A program made the position numbers and the translations under genes. Below, one piece after another: positions 38,341-64,000 of a DNA stretch of 64,000 nucleotides. Below the pieces are notes generated by a model that was given only the letters and a program-made list of their open reading frames with translations, was not told the origin of the DNA and ran no database searches. This DNA comes from Patescibacteria group bacterium (GTDB lineage Bacteria > Patescibacteriota > Minisyncoccia > Phycocordibacterales > PALSA-1337). The stretch lies in NCBI GenBank assembly GCA_038065415.1, contig JBBTRA010000002.1:13646-77645 (forward strand), in the 5' to 3' direction. Within the stretch, counting starts at the first letter, position 1; each line of letters begins with the position of its first letter.

Positions 38341-38362
38341 GCGAGTGTAGGTTTGAGCAGGC

Positions 38363-41141: not shown

Positions 41142-41145
41142 GGAT

Positions 41146-41844
41146 TTATTCCTTAGTGAATACAGCTACGTATCCATTTGTTTTACTACGGGGCCATCCG
41201 GTCATTGTCCAGAACCACAGCGAGATACGATTGATGATCGATATACCTGGTAGCGGCCATGAGAATTCGAGTCCTTCGCGACGATTCCAATTGCTGATGA
41301 GATTGACTTGGTGTGCACCCTGCTTTTGTTGCTGCTCGAGGGTGAAATAGTGCATGATCGCCTTGGGTGGGTATGGCTTGATATGGTCGAGTTCATTGTA
41401 GAAACCAGGGTACATGAGAGGGCTTCGTATGATAACGATACCCCCCGGCTTTACCACACGGAAAAGTTCCTCAAGGAGAAGGGTTACTTCGGGATAACTG
41501 AAATGCTCGATGACATGTGCGCAGTGGACGATATCGAACGATGAGTCTGCGTAGGGCATTTTTGTTGCAGATGCTGCTGCAGTCTTGAACCCTTTTTCCG
41601 TGAGTTTTTGTGCGACGGTTGTGTTGACTTCGAGGCACTCGATGTCGAGCTTCTCTTTGGGGTGGATGGTGCGAAGCTTGAGAGGGAAGCGTCCGAGACC
41701 TGCTCCTACCTCGAGATATTTTGTGGGTACGCCTGTAGGAGTGTTTGAAGAGGGTGCCTCTATGGTGTGCACGATCGCATCGAGTGCAGGAGCATCTTCG
41801 CGCTCGACCGACTTCATGTTGTATCTATCTCGAATAGTCATATG
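41146..41844 (-). CDS. Class I SAM-dependent methyltransferase
   Basis: …YLEVGAGLGRFPLKL…FDIVHCAHVIEHFSYPE…VKPGGIVIIRSP…. Confidence 0.6.
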   Translation of the reverse strand, partial: HMTIRDRYNMKSVEREDAPALDAIVHTIEAPSSNTPTGVPTKYLEVGAGLGRFPLKLRTIHPKEKLDIECLEVNTTVAQKLTEKGFKTAAASATKMPYADSSFDIVHCAHVIEHFSYPEVTLLLEELFRVVKPGGIVIIRSPLMYPGFYNELDHIKPYPPKAIMHYFTLEQQQKQGAHQVNLISNWNRREGLEFSWPLPGISIINRISLWFWTMTGWPRSKTNGYVAVFTKE

Positions 41845-41852
41845 ATTGATAG

Positions 41853-43127
41853 TTATTTCCGCTCTACGACACTCCACTTTTGGTCAATGAAGATGGGGCT
41901 ATGTGCGGTCTGCACGCCTGTGCCGTAATAGTCACCTTCATCAACACGGAACACGGCTACATTCTTGACATGGTCTTCACGATTTTCACCTGCATGGAGA
42001 TCCACTGAGACGCCATAGGTCCCTACATTGAGTGGGAACTTCTGGTCGATGCTACAGCGGATGACTCCTTTTTGTGGGAGGGTGGCAAATTGTTCTTTGG
42101 TCAGATTGGTCGAAGCGAGGATGAGTGGTGTACCAGACTCTGCAGTGATGGAGAAAGTTGCGTTCACGTCATTCACAGGAGACCCGTCAGTCGTATATTC
42201 GAAGCAGAGTGTGTATGAGCCTCCTGTCTTGAGTGTGTTGACCTTTTTGCCATTTTCCTCAATGAAGAATGAATCTATCTTCACGCGCCCCGCACCTTTG
42301 CGGTCATGGCGCATGCGGACATCGACACCTTTTTCGCGCACGAGCGGATCCTTGAGATACATGCTGATAATTTCATCAGTGTCTCCTGATGCTTTGACCA
42401 CACCCTTCTCGATGAGGATGCAACGGTTGCAGAGTTTCCTGACAGCTTCCATGTTGTGACTGACGAATAAGATCGTGCGGCCGTCCTCACGGGTGATCTG
42501 ATCCATTTTGCCGAGACATTTCTTCTGGAAATCGGCATCGCCCACAGCGAGCACCTCATCGATGATGAGGATGTCTGGCTCCATGTGTGCTGCCACCGAG
42601 AAGGCGAGGCGTACGTACATACCGCTGGAATAGTATTTTACCGGCGTATCGAGGAATTTTTCGATCTCTGCAAATCTGACGATCGCATCGAACTTGGAGG
42701 CCATCTCTTTTCGGGTCATGCCGAGGATGGCGCCATTCAAGAATATGTTCTCGCGGCCAGTGAGTTCCGGATGGAAGCCGGTTCCGACTTCGAGCAGGCT
42801 GCCGACCTTGCCGTGAAGCGTGATCTCGCCTTCGGTGGGCGAGGTGATCTGGGAGAGGATCTTGAGTAGGGTAGATTTTCCGGCCCCATTGTGACCGATG
42901 ATGCCGACCACTTCACCAGGATTCACTGTGAAGTTGATATCTTTGAGTGCCCAGAAGACCTCTTTCTTGGTGAGCCCTGTCATATCCTTGAATTTCGAGC
43001 CGAGGTAACGCAAGGGATGCTTGAATGCATCGGTGATCACGTCGCGCAGAGCGATATATCCACCACGTTCATGTGTGATCTTGTAGCTCTTGGCGATATT
43101 CTTTACTTCGATGATGGGGGAGGACAT
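41853..43127 (-). CDS. wzt: ABC transporter ATP-binding protein for glycan export (Wzt/TagH-like) with ~170-aa C-terminal extension
   Basis: Walker A GHNGAGKSTLLKIL, signature YSSGMYVRLAFSVA, Walker B ILIIDEVLAVGD, H-loop FVSHNM; residues ~255-424 form an extra β-rich domain. Confidence 0.8.
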   Translation of the reverse strand: MSSPIIEVKNIAKSYKITHERGGYIALRDVITDAFKHPLRYLGSKFKDMTGLTKKEVFWALKDINFTVNPGEVVGIIGHNGAGKSTLLKILSQITSPTEGEITLHGKVGSLLEVGTGFHPELTGRENIFLNGAILGMTRKEMASKFDAIVRFAEIEKFLDTPVKYYSSGMYVRLAFSVAAHMEPDILIIDEVLAVGDADFQKKCLGKMDQITREDGRTILFVSHNMEAVRKLCNRCILIEKGVVKASGDTDEIISMYLKDPLVREKGVDVRMRHDRKGAGRVKIDSFFIEENGKKVNTLKTGGSYTLCFEYTTDGSPVNDVNATFSITAESGTPLILASTNLTKEQFATLPQKGVIRCSIDQKFPLNVGTYGVSVDLHAGENREDHVKNVAVFRVDEGDYYGTGVQTAHSPIFIDQKWSVVERK

Positions 43128-43141
43128 ATATATATAGAATG

Positions 43142-43984
43142 TTAGACGATATCAGCGAAGTACCTCTCGACCTTTTTGAAGACATAGATTCCCACAATGA
43201 GCAGTATGAAGCAGGCGATGAGCGAGATGCCAAGGAGGAGCCAGTTGATCGGCGCGGTACCGAGGAGTGCCGCGCGGGCATTCTGGATGACTCCCATCAT
43301 CGGGTTGATGGCCAAGAATTTCGAATATGCTCCGGCGATCGAGGCGGGGTAGATGACCGGAGTTACGAAGAGGAGGAGCTGAATGAAGAAAGGCAGTGCG
43401 TAACGGACGTCACGGTATTTTACATTGATCGAGGCAAGGATCAGTCCACCGCCAACCGCTGCCATGAAAGTGATGAGAAGGAGAAGCGGTATGAGAAGCA
43501 GGCCGCTGATGTGCGGCGTATATCCATAGTAGAACATCAGGCCGACGAGGATGGCCGCAGCAATGGCAAAATCTACGAGCTTGGTGATGACCGAGGAGAT
43601 GGGGAGTATGAGGCGCGGGAAGTAGACCTTGGTGATGATTGCCTGGTTGCTGATGAGTACATTGCTGGTGTCGCCGAGCGCGCTCGAGAAAAATTGCCAG
43701 AAAATAAGACCGACATAGACGAAGATCGGGTAGGGGACGCCGTCAGAAGGCATCTTGGCTAGTCCTCCGAAGAAGATGGAGAAGACCACCATGGTGATGA
43801 AAGGTTGGAATATTGCCCAGCCTGCACCGATGACAGTCTGCTTGTAGCGGACCTTGAGGTCACGCCAGGTGAAGAAGTAAAGGAGCTCCTTGTAGTTCCA
43901 GAGTTCGCGGAGATCCGAGAAATGGAATATCTTCTTTGGTTTGATAGTCGTGATGATGCTCATGAGAGAAATGTATTCTAGCAC
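43142..43984 (-). CDS. wzm: ABC-2 type transporter permease (Wzm-like)
   Basis: 280 aa, six TM helices; adjacent upstream of Wzt; first gene of minus-strand run. Confidence 0.75.
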   Translation of the reverse strand: MLEYISLMSIITTIKPKKIFHFSDLRELWNYKELLYFFTWRDLKVRYKQTVIGAGWAIFQPFITMVVFSIFFGGLAKMPSDGVPYPIFVYVGLIFWQFFSSALGDTSNVLISNQAIITKVYFPRLILPISSVITKLVDFAIAAAILVGLMFYYGYTPHISGLLLIPLLLLITFMAAVGGGLILASINVKYRDVRYALPFFIQLLLFVTPVIYPASIAGAYSKFLAINPMMGVIQNARAALLGTAPINWLLLGISLIACFILLIVGIYVFKKVERYFADIV

Positions 43985-44012
43985 TTTTTACCCAGTAGGT
44001 GATCCTGCTGGA

Positions 44013-44261
44013 TCACCACTTATTTATCTTGTCCACGACCTTCTTCTTGAGACCGAGGTATGACTTGACTGCTTCTTGTTCGAGTTCAGGGGAGAGGACG
44101 CGGAGTATTTCTTTGCCGAGGATACGATACTGCCCGCCGACTTTGTTGGCGCGGAGGAGTCCTTTCTTGAGCATGCGCTTGATCGTGCTCTCGCTTACAC
44201 GGAGTATGTCTTGTGTTTCGCTTGTCGTATAGACGCCATGAGGTTTTATCTCTTCTGTCAT
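44013..44261 (-). CDS. Small helix-turn-helix DNA-binding protein (excisionase/MerR-type HTH)
   Basis: 82 aa; …YTTSETQDILRVSESTIKRMLKKGLLRANKVGGQYRI…. Confidence 0.6.
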   Translation of the reverse strand: MTEEIKPHGVYTTSETQDILRVSESTIKRMLKKGLLRANKVGGQYRILGKEILRVLSPELEQEAVKSYLGLKKKVVDKINKW

Positions 44262-44364
44262 AGAGCTCTATTCTAGCAAAGTGTCAAAAGGTGTCAAGTT
44301 GGTTCACTAGTAAAAAGCCTTTGATTGGGGCCCTATTTAAGCTTTAATTAGCGCTCTATAAATA

Positions 44365-44393
44365 TTGACAAATAGCATTATATATGCTATACT
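44365..44393 (+). promoter_or_regulatory. Near-consensus sigma70-type promoter (TTGACA-17 nt-TATACT)
   Basis: TTGACA at 44365-44370, 17-nt spacer, TATACT at 44388-44393; followed by RBS AAGAGG 8 nt before ATG 44466; region also carries GTGTCAA direct repeats (44291-44309) and TAGAGCTCTA palindrome (44261-44270). Confidence 0.5.
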
Positions 44394-44465
44394 TAGTACA
44401 GGATTTAAGCTCCCAATTGTGGGAGATTCGTGGGTATAACCAAAAACAAAAAGAGGACATTTACA

Positions 44466-44801
44466 ATGAAATATCGTATTACATTAGCGGCCGTTGTGAT
44501 GTGTCGCCCCGATGTTGCTCGACAACTCGGCTTCATTCCGGCGACGGACAAAGAAATCGTACTCGACACGCAGGATGGTTTGGGAAGGGAGATCTGGTTC
44601 GGGTATCTTTCTGAGCGGCAGAAGCAACAACAGGAGCCGCTTTCCGAGGACAGCTGGTTGAAAATCCGTGTTCCGGAAGACGGCGATCCGCTCAACGAAA
44701 TCCATAAATTTGCCGAGGCGGTCAATTTATTCTTTCGGTTTATGGCCGATGGGATTCGGGACAACTGTCTTGCGGTAAGAAGGATTGAGGTCATGGTCTA
44801 A
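44466..44801 (+). CDS. Hypothetical small protein (111 aa)
   Basis: MKYRITLAAVVMCRPDVARQLGFIPATDKEIVLDTQDGLGREIWFGYL…; strong promoter/RBS upstream, terminator downstream. Confidence 0.45.
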   Translation: MKYRITLAAVVMCRPDVARQLGFIPATDKEIVLDTQDGLGREIWFGYLSERQKQQQEPLSEDSWLKIRVPEDGDPLNEIHKFAEAVNLFFRFMADGIRDNCLAVRRIEVMV

Positions 44802-44823
44802 CCACCGTTACATATCAATGGGA

Positions 44824-44852
44824 AACCGTTGATGTGTAACGGTTTTTCATTT
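44824..44852 (+). terminator. Rho-independent terminator (AACCGTT-gatgtgt-AACGGTT + TTTTCATTT)
   Basis: Perfect 7-bp stem 23 nt after stop of 44466..44801. Confidence 0.6.
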
Positions 44853-44956
44853 GCGGAGCTTCCTCGTGGCGGCGTCGATTACATGTCCGTGGCATGTTTG
44901 GGATAGGCGTGGTATATTTTGCGGTACTTACCAAATAACCATCAGCGTCCATTACT

Positions 44957-47170
44957 ATGAACCTCCAGAAAATCCTCCGTTCGTTGTCCGTTGGTCTCAT
45001 TTTTCTCATACCTATCTTCCCACTGATCGTCGCGGACGGGTTCTTCTTTCCATTTATTACGGGCAAAGCGTTCTATTTCCGCATCTTGGTTGAGGTTGCT
45101 TTCGTTGCATGGATCCTGTTGGCATTTCTTGATGCAAAGTATCGTCCTCGATTCACCGCGCTTACCATCAGTGTAACGCTCTTCGCTGTCATCACCCTGA
45201 TCGCCGATCTTCTCGGAGTCAATCCAGTCCGCAGTATGGTCTCAAACTTCGAGCGCATGGAGGGCTGGTTGGTTATTGCTCATCTCTGGATGTTCTACAT
45301 GACCGCTACTCATCTTTTTGGCCATGATGAAGAGGGTAAGCGCATGTGGCGTCGTTGGTTCAACTTCTCGCTGGGTGTCGCGGTCGTAGTAGTAGGATAC
45401 GCGTTTGCTCAGATGTTTGGCTGGGCGGAGATTCATCAGGGTAGTGTCCGTCTCGATGCTTCACTCGGCAATGCTGCATATCTTGCGGTGTACATGCTCA
45501 TGCATGTAGGTATAGCTGCGTACCTCTCCTTCGTTGCCTATGCCGGCAAGATCGCTAATGCTAGTTTTCTGAAGTGGGCGTATCCGCTCCTGGCGCTTGT
45601 ATTCAGCTTCATTATTATCCAAACACAGACTCGCGGAACGATCATCGGCTTGGCAGGTGGTGCTCTGCTCGCCCTTGCTCTATATGCTCTCTTTGCCAAG
45701 AAAGAGTCGATACGCTCCCGTTCTATAGCGGCTGGTGCCATTGGCCTCATCTTGGTACTTACTGGTGCACTCTTCTTGAGCCGCGATACAGCCTTCGTCA
45801 AGAATAGCCCGTCCCTCAACCGTATCGCATCTATCTCGCTCACTGATACCAAGACGCAGGCACGTGCCTATGTGTGGCCGATGGCTCTCAAGGGCTTCAC
45901 TGAGCGCCCAATTCTCGGATGGGGTCAGGAGAATTTCAACTATGTGTTCAATCAGCACTACAATCCGAAGATGTGGAATCAAGAGCAGTGGTTCGACCGC
46001 GCTCACAGCGTCTTCCTTGATTGGTTGGTCGCGTCAGGGGCTGTTGGTGTGCTCTCGTATCTCGCACTCTATGTTTTTGCACTCATGGCTGTGTGGAAGT
46101 CGAGGATTACTATAGCTGAGAAGAGCACTCTCACGGGTCTCATCGTGGGATATGCTGTCCACAATATTTTCGTGTTCGACAACCTCGCCAGCTACGTCTT
46201 CTTCTTTGCGATCCTGGGATTTGCCGGTTCACTCGGATCTGCTGAACGATCTTCCAAGTCCAAAGTAGAGAAGTGGCTCGAGACCAAGACATTCAGCCGT
46301 GATGCAGTCGAGTATATCGTCGCCCCGATCGCTATCGTCGCGCTCGCTGCAGGAATATACTTTCTTAATGTTCGTAATATTCAAGCCAACACTAGCTTGA
46401 TAGACGCTTTGAGAGCGTGCTCCACGGCTGGTCGTGCGGATATTGCGCTTTTTGAAGGTCTTTTCAAGATTGATTCCGCAATGGCTGCTCAGGAAGCACG
46501 TGAACAGCTCATTTCATGTGCTACTGGCGTAGTTAGCAACCCATATCCAGGTCCGGTCAAGCAAGCTTTCTACGATCTGACAGTCAAGCAGATCCAGGAA
46601 CAGATTGCGGATGCTCCCGAAGATGCACGCATGTATATTCTCGGAGGTCTCTTCCTGAGCAATCTCAATCAGACCGCAGAAGCGAAGAAGCTCCTTGAGA
46701 AGGCTCGCGAACTGACTCCAGGTAAGCAGGCGGTAGCATTCCAGCTCGCCACTTTGTATGTGGCCGAGGGCAAGAAGGATGAAGCACTTGCATTGCTCAA
46801 GACAGCGTATGATGCAGATCCTACATATGATGATGCTCGCTCAGCATATGCAACCTCTATGATTATTGCCGGCAAGGATGCTGAGGCGCGCGTGCAGTTC
46901 GATAATGACCCTACTATCTTCGAGACCCAGCGCGCAGCTCAGGCATATGCCTCGCTCAAGCAGTATGATAAGGCGATAGCTATATACAATAGGCTTATCG
47001 CTGCCGATGCCAAGAACGTCAATCTCCGTACGGCACTTGCACAGACACAGTATTCTGCTGGCATGACCTGGTCAGCGACTGAGACTTTGCGCGCTATTGC
47101 CAAGGATTTCCCTGAGTACAAGGAACAGATAGATGCTGCTATCAAGGAGGTACAGGCTGGCGCAAAATAG
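44957..47170 (+). CDS. O-antigen ligase/polymerase-like (Wzy_C-type) membrane protein with C-terminal TPR repeats
   Basis: ~10 TM helices in N-terminal 470 aa; C-terminal …AEAKKLLEKARELTPGKQAVAFQLATLYVAEGKKDEALALLKTAYDADPTYDDARSAYA… TPR-like. Confidence 0.55.
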   Translation: MNLQKILRSLSVGLIFLIPIFPLIVADGFFFPFITGKAFYFRILVEVAFVAWILLAFLDAKYRPRFTALTISVTLFAVITLIADLLGVNPVRSMVSNFERMEGWLVIAHLWMFYMTATHLFGHDEEGKRMWRRWFNFSLGVAVVVVGYAFAQMFGWAEIHQGSVRLDASLGNAAYLAVYMLMHVGIAAYLSFVAYAGKIANASFLKWAYPLLALVFSFIIIQTQTRGTIIGLAGGALLALALYALFAKKESIRSRSIAAGAIGLILVLTGALFLSRDTAFVKNSPSLNRIASISLTDTKTQARAYVWPMALKGFTERPILGWGQENFNYVFNQHYNPKMWNQEQWFDRAHSVFLDWLVASGAVGVLSYLALYVFALMAVWKSRITIAEKSTLTGLIVGYAVHNIFVFDNLASYVFFFAILGFAGSLGSAERSSKSKVEKWLETKTFSRDAVEYIVAPIAIVALAAGIYFLNVRNIQANTSLIDALRACSTAGRADIALFEGLFKIDSAMAAQEAREQLISCATGVVSNPYPGPVKQAFYDLTVKQIQEQIADAPEDARMYILGGLFLSNLNQTAEAKKLLEKARELTPGKQAVAFQLATLYVAEGKKDEALALLKTAYDADPTYDDARSAYATSMIIAGKDAEARVQFDNDPTIFETQRAAQAYASLKQYDKAIAIYNRLIAADAKNVNLRTALAQTQYSAGMTWSATETLRAIAKDFPEYKEQIDAAIKEVQAGAK

Positions 47171-54630: not shown

Positions 54631-56097
54631 TTATCCGAGTTTCTCCAACAACAACTTCTTGATCATCTCAGGGTTGCCTGCACCCTTGGTTGCTTTCATC
54701 GCCATACCGACGAGGAACTGGAGTGAAGCGAGCTTGCCGGCCTTATATTCAGCGATGGCTTTTGGGTTATCGGCGAGTACTTGTTCGATAGCGGGAATGA
54801 GTGCTGAAGGGTCGTTTTTCTGGATGAGACCCTTGGCCTCAGCGACCTTCTTTGCAGATATTCCCTTCTCGGTAAAGAGGATTTTGAGGAGATCTTTGGC
54901 GCCGCGAGATGAGAGTTCACCCGCGTTGATCATGCTGATCAGCTCGGCAAAAACAGAGGGTGATACCTCCCACAGAAGGGAAGTAGTGCTGACGGGTGAT
55001 TGGGTAGATGAGTCCTTTATAAGCCTTATATAATCAGTGAGAATATAGTTGGTAGCCAGCTTCACAGATTTTGAGTCTCCAGCAGCGAAGTAGTTTACCA
55101 CCTCTTCATAGTAGTCAGCGGTCTCGGGTGATTCGACAAACACCGCAACTTCTTTGTCAGTCATGCCAAAGTCCTTGGTGAAGCGCTCGCGCTTGATCCA
55201 TGGGAGCTCAGGCAACTCCTTCTTCAAAGTCTCGGCAGAGAACTCTGGGATTTCGGAGAGCTTCAACTTTGGTATATCAGGATCCGGGAAGTAGCGGTAA
55301 TCGTGAGAGCTCTCCTTTTTTCTTTGAGAGTATGTTTCGTTTTTGCCATCGTCCCAACCACGAGTTTCTTGTATGACCTTGTCACCAGAACGGATGAGGT
55401 CGGACTGACGTTCGATCTCATACTCGATTGCTTTTTCAACTGAACGGAATGAATTGAGGTTTTTGACTTCGGTCTTCGTTCCAAATTTTCCGGCAGTAGT
55501 GTCAGCAGGGGATGCGACAGAAATATTTGCTTCGATACGCATCTCTCCCTTTTCCATGTTTGCTTCACCCGCACCGAGATAGCGGAGGAGGAGCTGGAGC
55601 TCGCTCGCAAACTTCACTGCAGTTGCTCCGTCGTGAATGACAGGTTTTGTCACGAGTTCCATGAGAGGTACTCCAGCACGATTGAAGTTCACCAAACTTT
55701 TGTCATGGGTGTCGTGTGTCGACTGAGCAGTGTCTTCTTCGAGATGTATACGCTCAAGCTCGACACCAGAAAGGGAGCCTCCCGTGATGAGCGGATATTT
55801 GTACTGACTGATCTGGTAACCTTTTGGGATGTCAGGATAGAAATAATTCTTGCGATCCCACTCTGTGAAGTCGGCGAGAGTTCCGCCAAGAGCGACACCC
55901 ATTTTGAGCACATGATTGATTGCCTCCCTGTTCAGGACGGGAAGGGTACCTGGATGACCAAGACAAACAGAACAGACATTCTTGTTAGGAACCTCTTCAT
56001 CGGGGTCATTCTTGCATGAGCAGAACATCTTTGAATTCGTAGCGAGTTCCGCATGTATCTCGAGTCCTATGGTGGCGATGAATTCCTGGTCAGTCAT
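54631..56097 (-). CDS. gatB: Asp-tRNA(Asn)/Glu-tRNA(Gln) amidotransferase subunit B
   Basis: MTDQEFIATIGLEIHAELATNSKMFCSC…VCLGHPGTLPVLN… canonical GatB N-terminus; 488 aa. Confidence 0.9.
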   Translation of the reverse strand: MTDQEFIATIGLEIHAELATNSKMFCSCKNDPDEEVPNKNVCSVCLGHPGTLPVLNREAINHVLKMGVALGGTLADFTEWDRKNYFYPDIPKGYQISQYKYPLITGGSLSGVELERIHLEEDTAQSTHDTHDKSLVNFNRAGVPLMELVTKPVIHDGATAVKFASELQLLLRYLGAGEANMEKGEMRIEANISVASPADTTAGKFGTKTEVKNLNSFRSVEKAIEYEIERQSDLIRSGDKVIQETRGWDDGKNETYSQRKKESSHDYRYFPDPDIPKLKLSEIPEFSAETLKKELPELPWIKRERFTKDFGMTDKEVAVFVESPETADYYEEVVNYFAAGDSKSVKLATNYILTDYIRLIKDSSTQSPVSTTSLLWEVSPSVFAELISMINAGELSSRGAKDLLKILFTEKGISAKKVAEAKGLIQKNDPSALIPAIEQVLADNPKAIAEYKAGKLASLQFLVGMAMKATKGAGNPEMIKKLLLEKLG

Positions 56098-56234
56098 AAT
56101 GGGTTTATAGTATATGAAAAGGAGCAGGATTTCAATCGGAGTTGATGCTATAGCGATAAATCCAAGAGGACTAGAAAACCCGCCATAGCGGGTTTCTTGG
56201 AGGTTGCTGGGAGAGCTCTCTCTTCGTCTCCAGT

Positions 56235-56495
56235 TTAGTCCTGATCGAGGTGCTTCACCTGAAGCTTCCTGACAGCTTTCTTAGGTGTTCGTGTTGCTCG
56301 GGTAGGAGATTCATTTTTGCCGATCACCTCGATAAGTTTCTCGATGTCCTCTCTCTTATATACTCGGTAATTATTGATGGGGTGTCTGAGGGCCTTGAGC
56401 TTGCCCTTGTTGTCCCAATTACGGAGGGTAAGAGGGGTGACCCCGAGCATTCTAGAGGCTTGCTTTATAGTGACTATTTTTGATTCTTGGCTCAT
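56235..56495 (-). CDS. MerR/excisionase-type HTH DNA-binding protein (86 aa)
   Basis: …IKQASRMLGVTPLTLRNWDNKGKLKALRHPINNYRVYKREDIEKL…. Confidence 0.55.
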   Translation of the reverse strand: MSQESKIVTIKQASRMLGVTPLTLRNWDNKGKLKALRHPINNYRVYKREDIEKLIEVIGKNESPTRATRTPKKAVRKLQVKHLDQD

Positions 56496-56582
56496 GCGTG
56501 TGTGATATGGCTTATAAGTACCCGCTTAGTATAACACTTATAAACATTGATAAACCATATATAAACTGTGGACAATTATATC

Positions 56583-56599
56583 AATCTATAAAATAGATT
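56583..56599. promoter_or_regulatory. Palindromic operator candidate AATCTAT-AAA-ATAGATT in AT-rich divergent intergenic region
   Basis: Perfect 7-bp inverted repeat between divergent HTH gene (56495) and 56810 gene. Confidence 0.3.
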
Positions 56600-56809
56600 A
56601 GTAATGTTTTATTAAAAACGTCGAATTTGATCGGTGCACTAAAAAATATTTTTCAGCTACTTCGAGTGGCTATTATGAGAGTAAAAAATATCGACCAAAA
56701 TCTAAAACGACCCTTTAAAATGCGATATGAGACTTTTATTTTTTGATACATGATATTAGTGCTATCCACAGAGCTTTTTCATATCGATGATTGCTATACT
56801 TATCACTGA

Positions 56810-57943
56810 ATGAAAGATTCAATTTTAATCGATGCTCGTGAGTTCATCTCGGTTGTCCGAGCCTCCGAGATAACCAAGTACAGCAACGACTATATCGGGC
56901 AACTCTGCCGCGAGGGTAAGATTGCTGCACGCATGGTTGGCCGCACCTGGTTCATCGATCGCGAATCTCTCTCCGTCTACAAAAATTCCGTTGATGCTGC
57001 ATTCGCCGGACAGGGCAAGCAGAAGGAGGCCATCCTGCCAAAGGGGTCGGTCGAGTCGAACATGATCGATGGGCGCGAATACGTCGAAGTCGCCAAGGCG
57101 GCTGAGATGACCAAATACTCCAAGGACTATATCGGGCAACTCTGCCGCGAGGGTAAGATTGCTGCGCGCATGGTTGGCCGCACCTGGCTCATAGACCGTG
57201 AATCTCTTGCCACCTACAAGAGCTCAGTCGACTCCTTCTTTGCTGGTCACGGTAAGCAAAAAGAGCCGGTGCTTCCGCGTGTTGTTGTTGAGTCGAAGAT
57301 GGTCGCTAAGTCGACGGTCATGTTTGTCGAAAAGCAAAAAGAGTCGCTTGCAAGGAACGCATCAGTGACGTACATGCCGGACACCGGCGCGACGTTACCA
57401 GTGTTGCAAAAGAAATATGATGCATCTGTCGCCGTGACACATGTTCCAAATAGTGATCAGCGCATTGTGTATCGTGAATCTAGGAAGTCATCGCCAATGC
57501 GTACTGCATTTACGGTTGTTGCGATTGCGCTCGTTCTCGTCTCTGGCTCAGTAGCTTTTCTTCGCATCTCTAATCGCTCAGGTCAGGGTCATGTTGCAGT
57601 CGAGATGATGGCCCCGAACACAGCCTCTGTTGGCAGTATCATCTATGCGATTGAAGATTTCTTCAGAAGGGTCTTCAACATGGAGTCTCGATCATTAGCA
57701 ACGAATGATGTGGAGAAGCCTCCACCGAACCCTGGAGGGCTCGCCATCGTACCGTCGTCAAATTCGAAAGCACAAGATGAACTTATAAAACAAAAGATAC
57801 GAGGATCGTTCTCGGATGAAGTCCGAGTCGCTCCAGACGAAAGTGGCACCGCGGGGGTGATCACGCCAGTCTTCAAGAAAGCAACGGGAGATAACTTCGT
57901 ATATGTATTGGTCCCCGTCGCAGAGCAAGCAAATAATCAGTGA
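56810..57943 (+). CDS. Membrane-tethered protein with two tandem excisionase-type HTH domains, one TM helix and ~120-aa extracytoplasmic C-terminus
   Basis: Repeat unit …EITKYSNDYIGQLCREGKIAARMVGRTWFIDRESL…AGQGKQKE… occurs twice (63-bp near-identical DNA repeat 56888-56950 / 57125-57187); TM …TAFTVVAIALVLVSGSVAFL…. Confidence 0.5.
   Translation: MKDSILIDAREFISVVRASEITKYSNDYIGQLCREGKIAARMVGRTWFIDRESLSVYKNSVDAAFAGQGKQKEAILPKGSVESNMIDGREYVEVAKAAEMTKYSKDYIGQLCREGKIAARMVGRTWLIDRESLATYKSSVDSFFAGHGKQKEPVLPRVVVESKMVAKSTVMFVEKQKESLARNASVTYMPDTGATLPVLQKKYDASVAVTHVPNSDQRIVYRESRKSSPMRTAFTVVAIALVLVSGSVAFLRISNRSGQGHVAVEMMAPNTASVGSIIYAIEDFFRRVFNMESRSLATNDVEKPPPNPGGLAIVPSSNSKAQDELIKQKIRGSFSDEVRVAPDESGTAGVITPVFKKATGDNFVYVLVPVAEQANNQ
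56888..56950 (+). repeat. 63-bp intragenic direct repeat copy 1 (second copy 57125..57187, 1 mismatch)
   Basis: gactatatcgggcaactctgccgcgagggtaagattgctgc[a/g]cgcatggttggccgcacctgg; 237 bp period = 79 codons = one HTH unit. Confidence 0.8.
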
Positions 57944-58059
57944 TCGTACTCAAGTGTCTCGGCTGTTTCGAAGAAGAACCAAGACACATGAGCAGGATTA
58001 CTCATGAGATCGAAGACAGAATTATCAAGGATCGAATTTATATCATAAGCATTATTACC

Positions 58060-58731
58060 ATGAAAGAAATCATTCAGACGCTCAGAATAAGCATGACGAC
58101 GCTACTCATAGTGGCAGTCGCATTCTTCACTCTTGAGCCCGCAGTTAGCAACGCAATCGAAGATCAGTTCACAGTTACGCAAGTGGTCACCGCTGAGATA
58201 TCCTTCCTCACGCCGAGCTCGGATATCGTCATGAGTCCACAGCTCGCGGGTATCACAGGAGGAACTTCCAATGGATCGACCTATGTTCGTGTCCTTACCA
58301 ACAATGCGCTTGGCTATAGCATGACGCTCACATCAAGCTCCTCCTTGGGTATGATCGGCAACACTCAGGGCGGAAATATTCCCGCTTACACGCCAGCAAC
58401 TGGTATCGTTCCAGACTTCAGCTTCTCAGTACCAGTGAACAGGGCTGAGTTTGGGTATACGGTAGAAGCATCGACGACACCAGATCTTGCTCAGGCATTC
58501 TTGGATAACGGTACGACAACCTGCGATACAGGGTCGGCTGATACAGTCGATGCATGCTGGGTTAATGCAAGTACGTCTGCACGTACGATCATCAATCGTA
58601 CCACTGAGACAGCTGCTTCAGGTGCTACGACGACTATCAAATTCCGCGTCACTATCAACTCCAATCCATCTCCAGCAGTTCCTCAGGATACATATGTAGC
58701 AACCACCACTCTTACTGCCACCACGAACTAA
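58060..58731 (+). CDS. Secreted Ser/Thr-rich protein with conserved Cys pair (paralog of 59756..60544)
   Basis: Start at internal Met (ATG 58060): signal peptide MKEIIQTLRISMTTLLIVAVAFFTLEPAVSNA; …TCDTGSADTVDACW…. Confidence 0.45.
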   Translation: MKEIIQTLRISMTTLLIVAVAFFTLEPAVSNAIEDQFTVTQVVTAEISFLTPSSDIVMSPQLAGITGGTSNGSTYVRVLTNNALGYSMTLTSSSSLGMIGNTQGGNIPAYTPATGIVPDFSFSVPVNRAEFGYTVEASTTPDLAQAFLDNGTTTCDTGSADTVDACWVNASTSARTIINRTTETAASGATTTIKFRVTINSNPSPAVPQDTYVATTTLTATTN

Positions 58732-58761
58732 CGAAGCGTCTTTACACTTCACATCACTACC

Positions 58762-59748
58762 ATGACATTACAAACACTCTTCAGAATGATATCCGGTTGT
58801 GCGATTGCGCTGGCCTTGCAGGCCGGCTCGCCAGTTCTTTCCGTTGCGCATGCAGCTCCGTACAGCATCGAGACTCTCCCCGATGCAACTGTCTACAATG
58901 ACTTCGTCGTGGGTCCCGGCAAATACCAGGTAGATGCAAAACCAGGCGAGACCAAGACGGTCAATATGATCGTGACGAACCGTCTCGGCAAAGAGAAGGC
59001 GTTTCAGATCCAGCTCGAGGATTTCGTAGGTTCACGCGATTTGCAGAAGACGGTTGTACTTCTCGACAACGAGCGTGGCCCGTATTCGCTCAAGGATTAT
59101 CTCAGAATTGCCTCGAGTACTTTCGTACTCAACAATGCTGAGAGAGTGACTATACCGGTGACCATCCAGATCCCAACAGATGCTCAGCCCGGTGGTCTTT
59201 ATGGCAGCGTGGTCATCAGTACAGTGACTTCGCCTGCGGAGCAGAGGCCTGCAGGATCAGCAGGTATCAGCCCGATTGTTACTCGCATCGGTTCACTCTT
59301 CTTCATTCGTGTAGCTGGAGAGGTCAAGCAAGATTTGATCCTCAAAGAATTCTCCCTGAAAGGAGATTCGCGCATCGTAGGATCGAGTCCGGTAGATTTC
59401 CAATTGCTCTATGAGAACAACGGCTCCATTCACGAGAATCCATCCGGATCCATCAGGGTCAGGAATATGTTTGGCTCCGAGGTTGCTACTTTGGAAGTCG
59501 AACCGTGGTTCGTCATGCCAGACTCACTTCGTCTCAGGGAGGTTTCTTGGAACTCTCCATTTCTCTTCGGTAGGTATGTCGCAACCGCAGAGATACACAA
59601 GGGGTATGACAATTTGACAGATACGGCTTCGGTCGCATTCTGGGTCATACCTTGGAAGATCATCCTGGCTGTATTCATCGTCATCGTGATCATTGTCGCA
59701 GGGATCAGATTCATCGCATCGAAGATCAACATATCACTCAAGAAGTAA
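58762..59748 (+). CDS. Cell-surface protein with signal peptide and C-terminal TM anchor (DUF916/DUF3324-like architecture)
   Basis: …SVAHAAPYSIETLPDATVYNDFVVGPGKYQVDAKPGETKTVNMIVTN… β-rich; C-terminal …IPWKIILAVFIVIVIIVAGIRFIASK…. Confidence 0.45.
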   Translation: MTLQTLFRMISGCAIALALQAGSPVLSVAHAAPYSIETLPDATVYNDFVVGPGKYQVDAKPGETKTVNMIVTNRLGKEKAFQIQLEDFVGSRDLQKTVVLLDNERGPYSLKDYLRIASSTFVLNNAERVTIPVTIQIPTDAQPGGLYGSVVISTVTSPAEQRPAGSAGISPIVTRIGSLFFIRVAGEVKQDLILKEFSLKGDSRIVGSSPVDFQLLYENNGSIHENPSGSIRVRNMFGSEVATLEVEPWFVMPDSLRLREVSWNSPFLFGRYVATAEIHKGYDNLTDTASVAFWVIPWKIILAVFIVIVIIVAGIRFIASKINISLKK

Positions 59749-59755
59749 ATCAACC

Positions 59756-60544
59756 ATGCACTTCGCTAGCAAACAACCATCGACCATATCGAAAGCCGCC
59801 TTCCCGGTATTTTTCGCGTTGGTTGTCCTTGCTGCAGTGTACTCGTCTCCGTACGCGGCAGGTCAGACTATGACAAGTGGTTCGTACAAGATACAGAGCG
59901 ACAGCGTCAACTTCGGTGGTGCTCGTTCATCATCAGCAACCTACACGATCGAGGATACTGCTGGCGAGGTTGCTACGGGCATATCGTCGAGCACCAACTA
60001 TCAGGTCAAGGCTGGATATCAGCAAATGCAGGAGACATATATCGCACTAGCTCCAGCTGCGGATGTGGCCATGAGTCCAGCGATCGGCGGTATCACTGGT
60101 GGGATATCGAATGGTTCCACTGGCTTCACCGTGACTACAGACAATCCTGCAGGATACACCGTGACTATCAAGGCGAGCTCCACTCCAGCTATGCAGTCAC
60201 CGTTGGATACAGTTGCAGATCATAGCGCAGGTGCAGCGAATCCAAGTTTCGGATTCACTGTACCGGTGACTGCTTCTGCATTTGCATTCACGCCAGAGGG
60301 AACTGATATAGCGAGCACATTCAAGGATGATGGTGCATCTTGTAATACTGGTTCGGGCGACACCTCCTTCGCATGCTGGGCTGGCCTCTCTACAGCTCCT
60401 CAGACGATCGTAAGCAGGACATCGGCAAATCATCCATCGGGAACTCTTACGACAATCAACTTCCAGGTTCGCTCTGGATCAGAGCATGTGTTGGTGGCGG
60501 GCATCTATGTAGCCACTACGACTATAACCGCATTGCCGTTGTAA
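59756..60544 (+). CDS. Secreted Ser/Thr-rich protein with conserved Cys pair (paralog of 58060..58731)
   Basis: Start MHFASKQPSTISKAAFPVFFALVVLAAVYSSPYAAG (ATG 59756); …SCNTGSGDTSFACW…; shared MSPxxGGITGGxSNGST motif. Confidence 0.45.
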   Translation: MHFASKQPSTISKAAFPVFFALVVLAAVYSSPYAAGQTMTSGSYKIQSDSVNFGGARSSSATYTIEDTAGEVATGISSSTNYQVKAGYQQMQETYIALAPAADVAMSPAIGGITGGISNGSTGFTVTTDNPAGYTVTIKASSTPAMQSPLDTVADHSAGAANPSFGFTVPVTASAFAFTPEGTDIASTFKDDGASCNTGSGDTSFACWAGLSTAPQTIVSRTSANHPSGTLTTINFQVRSGSEHVLVAGIYVATTTITALPL

Positions 60545-60549
60545 AACTC

Positions 60550-62127
60550 ATGAAGAAGTACACAGCACAACTCATGCATATCGGACTGGCGCTCTTGGTT
60601 GGAGCATCTTTTGCTTTTGCGGCAGAGAATACATTCCAGGTGCAGCTTGCGGTCATACCAGAGGGGAATACGGCTCCGTCGGTTCCAGCTAACCTTGTGG
60701 CGACTGCAGTTTCATCTTCGCAGATCGATCTTTCATGGGACACATCTACCGATGATGTCGCTGTAGATGGATACAGAATATTCAGGGACGGTATCGTTGT
60801 GGCTTCTACGACTGCTCTCACATACTCGGATATAGGTCTGACTGCATCGACCGCGTATACCTATGAGGTGGAGGCGTTCGACACAGCTCCGCTCTATTCG
60901 GGTCTATCCGCACCTGCGACAGCGACGACGCTTGCTGTTGGAGTTACTCCGCCAGGTCCTGGTGGACAATCAGGAGATGGTCAGCTCACACTGATCTTGA
61001 GCAACATCAATGCCACACCTGCACAACGCTCTGCTGTTGTGAGCTTCTCGACCAATCAGGCGACACAGGCGAAGGTTTACTGGGGTACAACAGCTGAATA
61101 CGAGCTCGGTTCGATCTCGGGCCTTTTCTATGACGTCAACCATGCAGTGACCATAGATAGCCTTGTTCCCGGTACACAGTACTTCTTCAGGGTTGAAGTT
61201 GTGAATTCTATTGGAGCGATGAAGTCAGCCGAAGGTTCATTTGAGACTTTGTCAGTAGTCCAGCAGGAAGTTCTGACTAACGTGACTGGCTTCAAAGCAA
61301 CTCCACGCACATCAGATATCGCTCTTTCATGGAAGAATCCTTCCCAGAGCATTTTCGATAGCGTTCGTATCGTCCGTTCAGATAAATTCTTCCCGAGGGA
61401 TATCTATGACGGACAAGTCGTATACGAGGGGCGCGCTCAGAATCATGTGGATGCGGATGTTCGCATTGGAACGACCTACTACTACACGATATTTGCACGC
61501 GACACAGCTGGCAACTACTCGTCGGGAGCGCTTGCCAAAGCTCGCATCGCTCCGGCAGGCGAGATTGTCATATCGCCAGATTCTACGGATCCGTTCATCG
61601 GCATACCGGTGCTCGAAAATGTTGATCCGGGCATAGCACGCCTAACCCTGCTTGATTTCGATTTCTTCCAGGAAGGGAAGAAGCTCGTCAATATCGGCAA
61701 TCAAATCGGGATCGATGGCTCGAAGGATCTCACTATACGCCTTGAGTATGGCAAAGTTCCAGAGATATTGAAGACTATCGCAATCACTCTGGCTGATCCT
61801 GAGGATCCGACGCAAGTGTTTCCATTCTTGCTCCGCGTGAATCAGGACAAGACTGCGTACGAGGCTACCATCGCTCCACTCGGTAAGCGTGGCAAGTACA
61901 AAATGAACATCGTCATCCTCGACTACAAGAATCAAGGATTGAGGAGGTTGGACGGCAATCTGAGAGCGTTCGTCTTTGGTTCGATTCCGGGCCTTGTAGG
62001 AGCCAGGGGAGGTGTGTCATACCGCGTGGTTGATCTTTTCTTCTTGCTTGTGGCATTGATCATGATCCTGCTCGCTATTGCATATCGCAGGCACAAGAAA
62101 ACAACTCAAGAAACATATGGAGTATAA
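60550..62127 (+). CDS. Cell-surface protein with fibronectin type III-like domains and C-terminal TM anchor
   Basis: Start MKKYTAQLMHIGLALLVGASFAFA (signal); …LVATAVSSSQIDLSWDTSTDDVAVDGYRIFRDGIVVASTTALTYSDIGLTASTAYTYEVEAFD… (FN3); C-terminal …LFFLLVALIMILLAIAYRRHKK. Confidence 0.55.
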   Translation: MKKYTAQLMHIGLALLVGASFAFAAENTFQVQLAVIPEGNTAPSVPANLVATAVSSSQIDLSWDTSTDDVAVDGYRIFRDGIVVASTTALTYSDIGLTASTAYTYEVEAFDTAPLYSGLSAPATATTLAVGVTPPGPGGQSGDGQLTLILSNINATPAQRSAVVSFSTNQATQAKVYWGTTAEYELGSISGLFYDVNHAVTIDSLVPGTQYFFRVEVVNSIGAMKSAEGSFETLSVVQQEVLTNVTGFKATPRTSDIALSWKNPSQSIFDSVRIVRSDKFFPRDIYDGQVVYEGRAQNHVDADVRIGTTYYYTIFARDTAGNYSSGALAKARIAPAGEIVISPDSTDPFIGIPVLENVDPGIARLTLLDFDFFQEGKKLVNIGNQIGIDGSKDLTIRLEYGKVPEILKTIAITLADPEDPTQVFPFLLRVNQDKTAYEATIAPLGKRGKYKMNIVILDYKNQGLRRLDGNLRAFVFGSIPGLVGARGGVSYRVVDLFFLLVALIMILLAIAYRRHKKTTQETYGV

Positions 62128-64000
62128 GAACATATACAAGAGAATAGTCTACATGGTTGCCGTCTTCGCGGTGGCTTTGACGGTTGTCTCTGCATATGTG
62201 TTTGTGGCACACGCTGCGATCAATCGTGAGATCAACTATCAGGGTAAGTTGACCAATGCATCCAATGTCGCTGTCGCCGATGGTCTCTACACGATGTCCT
62301 TCAGCCTCTACACAGTCCCTACGGCTGGATCGGCGATCTGGACTGAGCTCCTGAATGGTGCAAATGAGGTTCAGGTCACCAATGGTCTCTTTAGTGTCAT
62401 GCTCGGTTCGACGACACCATTCACTGGCGTGGACTTCAATCAGGAGTTGTACCTCGGTGTCACGATCGAAGGTGACAGCGAGATGACTCCGCGCAAGATC
62501 CTCGGCACAGTACCAGCTGCATTTGTTGCAGATACGCTCGACAATCTTTCGAGCGAACAGTTTCTTCGTTCCGATGCACAGAATTCCACTTCGACAGCAT
62601 CTACCTTCTTGACCATTATCCAGAACGGAGCAGGTAAGATCGCAGAATTCTTTGGCGCTGCATCCAATAGTGTGTTCTCTCTGCTTTCGAATGGAAATGT
62701 GGGCATCGGCACCACCACTCCATATGCAAAGCTTTCGGTTGCAGGTCAGGTAGTAGCTGAGAATTTTGTGGGAACATCGACGGCTACATCAACCTTTGGT
62801 GGAAATCTTGCTCTACGAGGAGGATTTGAGGTTCGGTATGAGGATGCTACAGAAACTCTTTTCATAGACAAACCATCGTCTGCATTTGAACACATACGAG
62901 TAAGAGATCTCACTGCCACCGACGCACTCTCTTCTTTGACCCAGGTATATACACCGCGCGTTGATGCTACTACTGATCTTTTGCTTAAGGCAAATACTGA
63001 TTTGGGTGAGGATACTACCGTTACAATTGATTCGACTTTCGGATATTTTACGGGGAGAGTAGGCATCGGCACCACCACTCCATATGCAAAGCTTTCGGTT
63101 GCAGGTCAGGTAGTCGGAGAGTACTTCACTGCAACTTCAACCACTGCTTCTAGATTCCCATACGCTTCAACTACAGCTCTCACAGTCTCAGGTACCAATG
63201 GTCTCCAGCTTGCTTCAGGTCTCAACGGATCTCTTCAGGCGATCAACGGTCTTGTGTCAGCTACCTCAACTCTCTCTACTGCATTTGGTGGTACGGGTAT
63301 CTCTACGAAGCCTGCGTATGGGGAGCTTCTCTTGGGTCAAGCAAATGGAACATATGCGCTGACATCCACAACATCTTTGAACATTGCTGCAAACAGTCTT
63401 GTTGGGACGCTTGGTGTTTCGCAGGGCGGCACGGGGTCTTCGTCATTCGGACAGGGTTGGATATATTCGAATGGTGGAACCAATGCGCTCAATTCCTCCT
63501 CATCTCCAACGGTGAACTATGTTATTGCTACGAGCACCACGAAGAAGAGTATATTTGTAGGAGGTATAGATTCACGCAATACCTCGACCTTCTATAGTCC
63601 GATTGATGCTGCTACGCTCACGGTGAATAGCTACTCGAGTGTTTCGTTGACATCGTCTGATGGAATCATCAACATTGGTGATGAGAGTGTCAATCAGGAG
63701 ATGCGCTTTGTTACAACCTCGGCGGGTACAATAGGTGCTGCAATTAGCACTACAGATTCATATTTTGCACAATATGGCGGCAATGTCAGGGTAGGACCAG
63801 TATCTCCACTCACTGATTATGGGTCACGCCTCTTTGTGACCAGTGAGAATCTCTCAGACGCATGGATCAATCTCAAGCAAACCTCCGGTGATAGTCAGCT
63901 TGTCATCGGAGCTATGACCAATCCACGCGATGTGAATGGGTTGGCGGCTCCATATTTGCAGTCATATAATGATGGGTCTGCGTACGCGCTTATTTTGAAT
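62118..64000 (+). CDS. Large fibre-like surface protein, N-terminal part (open to window end; ≥627 aa), with repeated GIGTTTPYAKLSVAGQVV motif
   Basis: Manual translation from ATG 62118 (MEYKNIYKRIVYMVAVFAVALTVVSAYVFVAHA…) shows no stop to 64000; not in ORF track (no stop in window). Motif resembles β-helical repeats of tail-fibre/S74-chaperone-type fibre proteins. Confidence 0.5.
62699..62755 (+). repeat. 57-bp direct repeat copy 1 (encodes NVGIGTTTPYAKLSVAGQVV)
   Basis: Near-identical (1 mismatch) to 63059..63115, 360 bp (120 codons) apart, inside the fibre gene. Confidence 0.8.
63059..63115 (+). repeat. 57-bp direct repeat copy 2
   Basis: See 62699..62755. Confidence 0.8.

Follow-up and report, generated by a model that had tools for sequence, protein, structure and literature searches.

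The closest described relatives of the system reported here are the mosaic adhesive trimer (MAT) fibres of Bdellovibrio, of which 21 were described by Caulton et al. 2024 (PMC10769870). According to the available portion of that paper, MAT proteins begin with a signal peptide, which is followed by a conserved, beta-rich N-terminal domain of ∼130 aa that has no homologue in the Protein Data Bank (PDB) and whose surface partner is stated to be unidentified. Their bodies are trimeric and beta-helical, with capping loops of the consensus V-G-G/N-pi-x-x-P-x-x-x-L, and their C-termini carry an S74 domain (SDxxxK) or other adhesive tips. The tip of Bd2133 was measured at 150 Å per ∼370 aa, and the list of MATs in other organisms, in the same portion of the paper, contains no bacteria of the candidate phyla radiation (CPR). 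A second related system is the pam operon of Candidatus Mycosynbacter amalyticus (Troman et al. 2026, bioRxiv 10.64898/2026.03.03.709456), which encodes immunoglobulin (Ig)-like pilins assembled by donor-strand exchange and membrane-anchored chaperones. The same preprint describes PamR (WP_260763282.1), an RbmA-like fibronectin type III (FnIII or FN3) protein with a C-terminal transmembrane (TM) helix and an extra N-terminal strand, as well as a “tail fibre-like protein” that was consistently co-localised with pam operons and was assigned no function or partner; it makes no mention of WxL proteins. Here, a locus of a groundwater patescibacterium of the Paceibacteria type was analysed, which lies at the end of a 64,000-nt stretch of DNA (contig JBBTRA010000002.1, positions 13,646 to 77,645; hereafter the window). 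It comprises a gene for an FN3 protein with a TM segment (the anchor) and the beginning of a giant fibre gene. A large part of bacterial diversity falls within Patescibacteria, whose cultivated members live attached to other cells. For Paceibacteria, the dominant class in groundwater, there is to our knowledge almost no molecular picture of attachment, and a literature search found no paper that links MAT fibres to Patescibacteria.

Taken as a whole, the explanation that we favour and consider likely is that these two genes form the end of a conserved operon encoding a cell-surface appendage. The ATG of the fibre gene at position 62117 overlaps the end of the anchor gene by 11 nt (Table 1). 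The first-pass annotation, made from the letters of the window alone, had read a giant fibre frame as open from 62118 to the window end; the open frame of 628 codons without a stop was confirmed, the start was corrected to 62117, and on public contigs the gene was found at its full length of 3412 codons. The complete product was recovered as a 3400-aa form from a later start (P0241). A Peptidase_S74 domain, which the annotation had expected at the C-terminus, was detected at aa 3000–3062 (Pfam PF13884, E = 6e-17, 62.1 bits against a cut-off of 22, profile positions 1–57 of 58), and its catalytic Ser-Lys motif SDxxxK is intact as S3000-D-Q-R-L-K3005. In a PDB sequence search, SDQRLK was aligned to SDRRIK in the long tail fibre of a phage (PDB 6f45) and to the corresponding part of MyRF (7dc3). 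Within the body of the fibre, aa 683–901 matched PDB chains of trimeric autotransporter adhesin heads (CbpF, UspA1 and Hep_Hag; E down to 7.6e-9), and YadA_head repeats of Pfam reached 24.1 bits, just under the cut-off of 25. No YadA-type C-terminal beta-barrel anchor was found in a Pfam scan of 3337 of the 3412 residues, the rest being an acidic low-complexity tail. Gly, Thr and Ser are abundant in the fibre. A PDB sequence search with aa 162–428 returned nothing meaningful, and no recognisable lectin or receptor-binding tip was present before the S74 domain. Based on its sequence, the fibre is a 3412-aa secreted protein composed of a signal peptide, a beta-sandwich homologous to the MAT N-terminal domain, motif-punctuated modules, an adhesin-like head and a C-terminal S74 domain, and it is probably a trimeric adhesin. 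Both minus-strand open reading frames (ORFs) that overlap its gene begin with MVVPMPT..., and the plus-strand frame that they overlap falls in the conserved portion of the N-terminal half of the fibre; the earlier view of these ORFs as artefacts was upheld (Table 1).

The S74 domain is followed by a stretch predicted to be helical, a small segment that contains Cys (‘TGQVYCVQISNGDWNKRLGSC’) and the acidic low-complexity tail. In this region (L001 21200..21578 and the C-terminus of P0241), the tail after the Cys segment is ∼150 aa long, acidic and rich in Ser and Gly, and it would leave with the S74 fragment. Segments resembling ‘TGQVYCVQISNGDWNKRLGSC’ also occur near the C-termini of P0004 and P0014, two relatives in which Pfam detected no S74 match.

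The relationship to MAT fibres was seen in the N-terminal domain. In the AlphaFold2 (AF2) model of aa 34–345, aa 44–123 form a beta-sandwich with block-mean predicted local distance difference test (pLDDT) values of 91–98, and the ends of aa 34–133 lie at 81–82. The NCBIfam model Bdello_MAT_N matched this domain with 23.5 bits (E = 4e-5) against a curated cut-off of 60, and it matched 14 of 16 fibre relatives, the best of them at E = 6.4e-12. An ‘INYQGKL’-type motif was present within the first 200 residues in 112 of 120 fibre homologues, a few residues past an AxA-type site in most of the sequences inspected. The first 628 residues had their best homologue at E = 3.5e-89 over 49%. The family of the N-terminal domain comprised 22,538 representative clusters (50% identity) at E ≤ 1e-3 and 6,659 at E ≤ 1e-10; the clusters are mostly labelled ‘hypothetical’, and every named or located relative is patescibacterial. 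The relatives range in length from 474 to more than 3400 aa, and S74, Fib_succ_major, LVIVD, BNR-like and other domains were found at their C-termini. The motif V-G-I-G-T-x-x-P-x-x-K-L of the window fibre resembles the capping-loop consensus of the MAT bodies.

The anchor protein has FN3 modules and a C-terminal membrane anchor, as the first-pass annotation had stated, according to Pfam, the AF2 model (mean pLDDT 86.8) and the sequence itself. In Pfam, two stretches matched fn3 (E = 7e-14), and aa 156–233 matched Pur_ac_phosph_N, which is FN3-like (E = 3e-6). A fourth beta-sandwich (D4) follows, which a linker connects to the TM helix; no LPXTG motif was present at the C-terminus when the sequence was read. 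D4 contains many invariant residues, is among the conserved stretches of the anchor family and is kept in every short or fused form. In the mature N-terminal extension, residues 1–4 and 6–11 were disordered in the model (pLDDT below 50), F5 is conserved in at least 90% and the family consensus retains L9 and V11. A total of 355 family members was detected, and those listed are mostly about 500–590 aa long; the informatively named relatives are patescibacterial, apart from one metagenome-assembled genome labelled Nanoarchaeia. Sequence and model together indicate an exported protein that is held in the cytoplasmic membrane by its C-terminal TM helix and projects three FN3-like domains and a fourth conserved beta-sandwich.

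The operon contains, in order, genes for a helix-turn-helix (HTH) regulator, pilin-like protein A, a WxLIP-like chaperone, the PamT-like pilin-like protein C, the FN3 anchor and the fibre. The gaps between the four upstream genes and on to the anchor gene are 45, 30, 7 and 5 nt. Conservation of this arrangement was analysed by a GTDB scan with one genome per species, in which the fibre N-terminal domain as query returned 466 relatives, and the best 80 loci were examined. All of these best 80 belong to Patescibacteria, mostly to Paceibacteria/Parcubacteria lineages. An anchor homologue was located directly upstream of the fibre in 61 of the 80 species loci; pilin C was found in 59, pilin A in 45 and the WxLIP-like gene in 42, and a homologue of the HTH protein was present in the fetched flanks of the fibre, usually upstream, in 63. 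A complete Paceibacterota genome of 692 kb and a JGI contig contain homologues of all five genes with their order kept, and a third contig contains them in permuted order. In one ‘short’ locus (L015), the anchor consists of the N-terminal module of pilin C, one FN3 domain, D4 and the TM helix. In three others (L019, L025 and L033), similarity to the anchor was detectable only C-terminally, from query residue 333 or 346 on, which corresponds to D4, with the TM helix in two of them. Anchor and fibre were fused into one polypeptide in 18 proteins, namely P0015, P0053, P0064 and 15 of 116 further cluster representatives. The fusion junctions of the three named proteins retain the TM segment of the anchor, a short basic loop and a segment resembling the fibre signal peptide with its AxA site. 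Adjacency, translational overlap and recurrent fusion thus make a strong genomic case for joint action of anchor and fibre, and as judged from the genomes the two form a genetic pair.

P0245, P0248, P0251, P0253, P0256, P0267 and others are likewise anchor–fibre fusions, and some fusions are up to 4829 aa long. Roughly one in four species loci encodes a MAT_N fibre but no homologue of the anchor, the pilins or the chaperone within 8 kb; most of these loci retain the HTH gene (L026, L039, L046, L051, L054, L055, L069, L072, L076–L080, L083, L086 and L089). In such loci, the anchor may be encoded at another site, or an uncleaved signal peptide may tether the fibre to the membrane. Outside the window, 380 nt past the fibre stop, a gene for a 1778-aa protein with Laminin_G_3, fn3, Big_7 and Flg_new_2 domains was located (L091 16583..21919), and giant proteins with Laminin_G_3 or Gly_rich_2 are also encoded downstream of the fibre in other species (L004, L009). 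The downstream Laminin_G_3-type giant is possibly a further large surface protein encoded by this locus.

Pilin-like proteins A and C are paralogues (42% identity over 171 aa, E = 1e-33). Protein C matched the NCBIfam model CPR_pilus_PamT at E = 1.6e-10 with 40.8 bits, which is sub-threshold against the curated cut-off of 240, and, the PamT model apart, an NCBIfam search gave no match for the other operon proteins; no Pam model matched the chaperone-like gene. No WxL-family model of Pfam or NCBIfam was found on the pilin-like proteins at E up to 0.1, and PDB sequence searches with both of them returned nothing meaningful. The Pfam model WxLIP_PGBD matched 19 of 25 members of the chaperone-like family, and the profile of this family matched WxLIP1 of E. 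faecium (EfmWxLIP1; PDB 9i25, 9i1y) at E = 1.5e-8. The WxLIP proteins of Firmicutes consist of DUF916/DUF3324 and a TM segment, and the product of 58762..59748 is their homologue in the window. The protein at the head of the operon, whose HTH_17 repeats are of the excisionase type, could regulate the operon from the membrane. In pilin-like protein C, the N-terminal module (59756..59950; ‘S.SYKIQSDSVNFGG..SSS.TY.IEDT.GE.ATG...AGYQQ’) is a separable unit: it is joined straight to FN3 domain 3, D4 and the TM helix of the anchor in ‘short’ loci (L015 6752..7912), and it is found at the extreme N-terminus of several anchor–fibre fusion proteins.

Within the fibre gene, the first-pass annotation had reported two near-perfect 57-bp repeats 360 bp apart. 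They are indeed present, with a spacing of 360 nt (3 × 120), 55 of 57 positions identical and an exact core of 53 nt (62702..62754 = 63062..63114); VGIGTTTPYAKLSVAGQVV is preceded by N in copy 1 and by R in copy 2. By regular expression, the repeated 19-residue motif (VGIGTxxPxxKLxV) occurs in 16 copies in the fibre gene, and the first copy is conserved throughout the family alignment. The codons of the two window copies agree at 17 of 19 positions, whereas other motif copies share 4–11 codons out of 14–18 same-residue positions, and the six closest motif copies are identical at 39–46 of 57 nt in pairwise comparison. The codon identity of the window copies (P ∼2e-9 under the codon usage of the gene) therefore points to common ancestry at the DNA level and not only to constraint on the protein. 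Tandem Repeats Finder reported no array with a 360-bp or 57-bp period and no simple repeat, the 303 nt between the copies are unique, and BLASTP of the fibre against itself with default statistics gave no off-diagonal high-scoring segment pairs. When the origin of the 101-aa module between the copies was searched by phmmer and tblastn in the rest of the gene, the 120 homologues and all fetched loci, only its generic ‘NFxGTSTATSTFGG’ start was matched. Four close relatives (L011, L012, L014 and P0004) have one motif, in which the upstream context of copy 1 is followed directly by the downstream context of copy 2 (‘..EYFTATSTT.AS.FPYASTTALTVSG..’); the window lineage thus holds a 120-aa unit (motif plus 101-aa module) that these relatives lack. 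At this joint, modules other than that of the window are found in further relatives, likewise bounded by motif copies.

These comparisons of sequences indicate that the repeats are the edges of a recently gained module, and that the fibre evolves as a mosaic at the motif, not by tandem expansion or phase switching. The DNA-identical joints could have arisen by a recent insertion or duplication at the motif or by gene conversion between the copies; repeated deletion in the relatives is also possible and is less parsimonious. Two assemblies span both repeats and are identical, and both were derived from Hainich groundwater data, so they provide a weak test for length variation. The ‘recent expansion’ that had been proposed from the repeats was thus not borne out, as there is no tandem array and the copies are two of 16 motifs that bracket a module. 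The suggested proneness to recombination holds in the form of module shuffling at the motif, and the phase or length variation proposed along with it was not seen in the two Hainich assemblies.

The anchor protein is on record with an exact match in several public contigs, including an 87.6-kb contig of NCBI GCA_964357625.1, a 55-kb contig of an ENA assembly from Hainich groundwater well H41 (0.1-µm fraction) and a contig of a Logan assembly. The window is identical base for base to three public contigs (L001–L003) across the overlap. The locus is flanked by genes for Wzy_C-TPR, MurB, SecA, NUDIX and AI-2E transporter proteins, Obg and GatB, and the GC content of the fibre gene (0.489) is close to that of the window (0.488). 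A promoter and terminator scan of 56000..64000 gave signal no better than in shuffled sequences. Farther upstream, a long run of envelope and glycan genes was found at 7345..47170, which includes a GT4 glycosyltransferase (7345..8547), a Wzt-type ABC ATPase (41853..43127, minus strand) and a Wzy_C O-antigen-ligase-like protein with tetratricopeptide repeats (TPR; 44957..47170). Two large ORFs of this stretch (26366..28270 and 29312..30784, minus strand) had no Pfam match. A VirD4/TrwB-like coupling protein of type IV secretion is encoded at 5333..7342 (Pfam TrwB_AAD_bind, T4SS-DNA_transf); a monoderm-type type IV secretion system has been reported in Patescibacteria, and this coupling protein fits it.

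Table 1. Features of the anchor–fibre locus in window coordinates
Feature	Position	Strand	Basis or remark
Membrane-bound regulator candidate	56810..57943	+	two tandem HTH_17 repeats (Pfam E = 9e-15, two stretches), TM segment, extracytoplasmic C-terminal part
Pilin-like protein A	57988..58731	+	single Ig-like domain with Cys pair; start per gene call in L001
WxLIP-like, PamC/D-like membrane-anchored chaperone candidate	58762..59748	+	two Ig-like domains and C-terminal TM; Pfam WxLIP_PGBD E = 6.8e-6
Pilin-like protein C	59756..60544	+	N-terminal ‘SGSYKIQSDSVNFGG..IEDTAGEVATG’ module and Ig-like domain
FN3 stalk/anchor protein, 525 aa, PamR-like in architecture	60550..62127	+	Pfam, AF2 model, sequence
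Anchor signal peptide (MKKYTAQLMHIGLALLVGASFAFA, then AENTF)	60550..60621	+	basic n-region, hydrophobic core, AxA-type site; inferred from sequence
Mature N-terminal extension (AENTFQVQLAVIPEG...), candidate donor/docking strand	60622..60678	+	low pLDDT yet conserved residues
FN3 domain 1	60679..60936	+	
FN3-like beta-sandwich 2	60994..61251	+	Pfam Pur_ac_phosph_N; AF2 model
FN3 domain 3	61279..61551	+	AF2 mature 222–308; second Pfam fn3 stretch; kept in short-form anchors
Fourth beta-sandwich (D4), membrane-proximal	61654..61971	+	AF2 mature 345–450, block-mean pLDDT 83–94
C-terminal TM helix (VVDLFFLLVALIMILLAIAY), then basic tail RRHKK	62026..62085	+	V493–Y512 hydrophobic; AF2 helix mature 467–498
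Fibre gene, first 628 codons of 3412 (MAT-like, S74 type)	62117..64000	+	open frame, ATG 62117, no stop; 8355 nt more past the window
Fibre signal peptide (MEYKNIYKRIVYMVAVFAVALTVVSAYVFVAHA, then A)	62117..62215	+	sequence
MAT_N-like N-terminal beta-sandwich domain	62216..62611	+	AF2; NCBIfam Bdello_MAT_N E = 4e-5
Antisense ORF, artefact of fibre frame	62440..62718	-	starts inside reverse complement of repeat copy 1; no Pfam match
Repeat copy 1, capping-loop-like motif VGIGTTTPYAKLSVAGQVV	62699..62755	+	closes family-conserved N-terminal region
Antisense ORF, artefact of fibre frame	62746..63078	-	starts inside reverse complement of repeat copy 2; no Pfam match
Lineage-specific 101-aa module	62756..63058	+	missing from four close relatives
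Repeat copy 2, encodes VGIGTTTPYAKLSVAGQVV	63059..63115	+	

In the mechanism proposed for the locus, the S74 domain would nucleate trimerisation of the fibre from the C-terminus, as in phage S74 and MAT fibres, and would then be released by self-cleavage at Ser3000, so that a trimer with ∼2966 residues in each chain remains. Once the signal peptide is removed, the FN3 anchor would hold the MAT_N domain on the cell surface, with the membrane-proximal D4 as the likeliest contact. The N-terminal extension of the anchor, or the pilin-N module in short forms, would couple the pair to Pam/WxL-like pilins assembled by the WxLIP-like chaperone, and the fibre would attach to a host cell or to some other surface. 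When the Bd2133 tip is scaled to a chain of ∼2966 residues, a rough extrapolation gives a fibre length on the order of 100 nm. A bolder version of this mechanism is also conceivable, which we put forward tentatively and would not yet bet on: the FN3-TM protein would be a dedicated dock for MAT_N, the cassette would in Paceibacteria form a single host-capture organelle within a donor-strand system of the WxL/Pam type, and the fibres would diversify by swaps of modules at the capping loops, the window representing a recent swap.

The operon context allows for another arrangement, in which the fibre is a tip or lateral adhesin of a pilus, joined to Pam/WxL-like pilins by donor-strand exchange, and the FN3 protein only terminates or anchors the pilus without touching the fibre. 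Two pilin-like genes and a WxLIP/PamC-like chaperone are present, PamR is modelled as the pilus terminator in the preprint that also reports the co-localised tail fibre-like gene (10.64898/2026.03.03.709456), the alternating strand I-N-Y-Q-G-K-L at the mature N-terminus of the fibre is very conserved, and a pilin-N module opens some of the fused proteins. We nevertheless consider this arrangement unlikely, given that the anchor–fibre pair persists, even in fused form, where full-length pilin and chaperone genes were undetected and only the pilin-N module is left, that the INYQGKL strand lies inside a complete sandwich of its own in a high-confidence AF2 model, and that a trimeric fibre is hard to square with a 1:1 donor-strand polymer. 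A structural role in the envelope or matrix, as part of an S-layer-associated or biofilm-related, RbmA-like system and not as a host-recognition adhesin, seems less probable still. The architectural resemblance of the anchor to the RbmA-like PamR, the Gly-, Thr- and Ser-rich composition of the fibre without a discernible tip before S74, and the vicinity of cell-envelope genes (Wzy_C, MurB) are in keeping with such a role; against it, the characterised relatives (MAT fibres, trimeric autotransporter adhesin heads and S74 phage fibres) are all adhesins, and lengths (474 to >3400 aa) and tips vary strongly between species, as is typical of host-range determinants.

The repeats could, in turn, mark the fibre as a contingency gene, in which the 53-nt direct repeats drive in-frame loss and regain of the 360-bp unit and the length varies within the population. 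The exactness and in-frame spacing of the repeats would suit this idea, as would the ‘deleted’ arrangement, which is found exactly in the four close relatives aligned, and the different modules of other relatives at the same joint. It was judged improbable, as no tandem array or simple repeat is present, both spanning assemblies are identical, a match of 53 nt is short as a substrate of homologous recombination, and the differences were observed between species and not within a population. The least credible origin is a remnant of a prophage or tailocin tail fibre, for which the chance appears very slight. S74 domains are classic in phage fibres, the fibre had a weak PHROG match of unknown function, and the anchor had PHROG tail-protein matches, which were attributed to its FN3 domains. 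No phage genes are nearby, however, the flanks being SecA, Obg and GatB; the same chromosomal position recurs in many species; the GC content equals that of the genome; and fibre residues 1–628 gave no match by tblastn against 50,697 phage records. The prophage reading was rejected on the grounds of core-gene context, conserved synteny, GC content and the absence of a match among the phage records. What had been called a motif typical of phage or S74 fibres is accordingly of the S74-fibre type in a cellular setting.

Several observations also count against the favoured explanation, that of an anchor–fibre pair at the end of a surface-appendage operon. Trimerisation, autocleavage, surface display, host binding and the contact between anchor and fibre are predictions from sequence and analogy. 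The Bdello_MAT_N score under the curated cut-off supports homology at the superfamily level only, the window motif is one residue longer than the MAT consensus, and the gene contains no exact match to that consensus. The conserved INYQGKL strand is packed within its own domain in the AF2 monomer model. In 19 of the 80 loci, no anchor lies within 8 kb of the fibre, which means that the two are not obligatorily paired, and the Pam-family match is weak and comes from just one operon protein.

The locus points to a very large unannotated family of fibres akin to the prey-recognition fibres of Bdellovibrio; gene adjacency and natural fusions connect this family with a specific membrane anchor and with a pilus module of the Pam/WxL-like type. 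These fibres are testable candidates for host-range determinants of uncultivated episymbionts, and the repeat pair illustrates the gain and loss of modules in mosaic fibres. The main value of the locus lies in a testable hypothesis on how MAT-type fibres are held on the cell. If the FN3-TM protein were indeed the dedicated dock, it would be the ‘surface element’ holding the MAT N-terminal domain that was left unidentified in the MAT paper. The locus also links three systems that have been described separately, namely MAT fibres, CPR Pam pili and Firmicutes WxL clusters.

When the fibre was compared with phage S74 fibres (the K1F endosialidase, the T5 L-shaped fibre and the S16 long tail fibre) and with MyRF, a C-terminal S74 domain, the Ser-Lys dyad and VG..P...L loops before it were found to be shared, and the same mechanism of trimerisation followed by autocleavage would be expected. 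Unlike the phage fibres, the window fibre has no virion-attachment N-terminus and lies in a conserved chromosomal context. In the comparison with trimeric autotransporter adhesins (heads of YadA, UspA1 and CbpF), its aa 683–901 match head repeats in PDB chains, with the Pfam YadA_head score just sub-threshold, and no YadA-type barrel was detected; its trimerisation is presumably driven by S74, and an outer membrane is assumed to be absent.

The WxL/WxLIP clusters of Firmicutes, in the available part of their description (Hassan et al. 2023, PMC10599100), have in common with the operon a WxLIP-type protein that has two Ig-like domains and a TM segment at its C-terminus, as well as a small and a larger paralogous surface protein, whereas the FN3 anchor and the MAT-like fibre fall outside the cluster composition described there. 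The logic of the pam operon is matched by Ig-like pilin-like proteins, a membrane-anchored chaperone candidate, an FnIII protein with TM helix and N-terminal strand, and nearby tail-fibre-like gene, and one pilin-like gene of the window matches CPR_pilus_PamT at a sub-threshold score. Pam homologues have been reported chiefly from Saccharimonadia and Microgenomatia, in contrast to the Paceibacteria-type lineage of the window. The anchor agrees with PamR, to which it was likened by description only, in its FnIII tandem, TM helix, N-terminal extension and place in the operon; PamR has two domains, however, and the anchor has four beta-sandwich domains. Judged from these sequences, CPR Pam-like operons and Firmicutes WxL clusters may form one superfamily of surface systems.

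The closest correspondence was found with the S74 subgroup of the MAT fibres, such as Bd3182. Both have a signal peptide leading straight into a beta-rich N-terminal domain, which in the window fibre is MAT_N-like at the superfamily level, a long fibrous body with recurring VG..P...L motifs, which in the window fibre are capping-loop-like, and a C-terminal S74 domain with SDxxxK. The tips are swapped and diverse in both cases, the variable tips of the relatives of the window fibre following the same ‘mosaic tip’ pattern, and both are encoded by a gene that is cellular and not viral, in an organism living on other bacteria. The window fibre differs in being three times longer than typical MATs (∼1000 aa), and its host is a monoderm-like CPR bacterium, whereas that of the MATs is a Gram-negative predator. 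It is furthermore coupled, and often fused among its relatives, to an FN3-TM anchor within a pilin/chaperone operon, a coupling that the available portion of the MAT paper does not mention for MATs. The fibre is regarded as a distant CPR member of the MAT/S74 kind, whose novelty lies in its well-supported genomic coupling to an FN3-TM anchor in a Pam/WxL-like operon.

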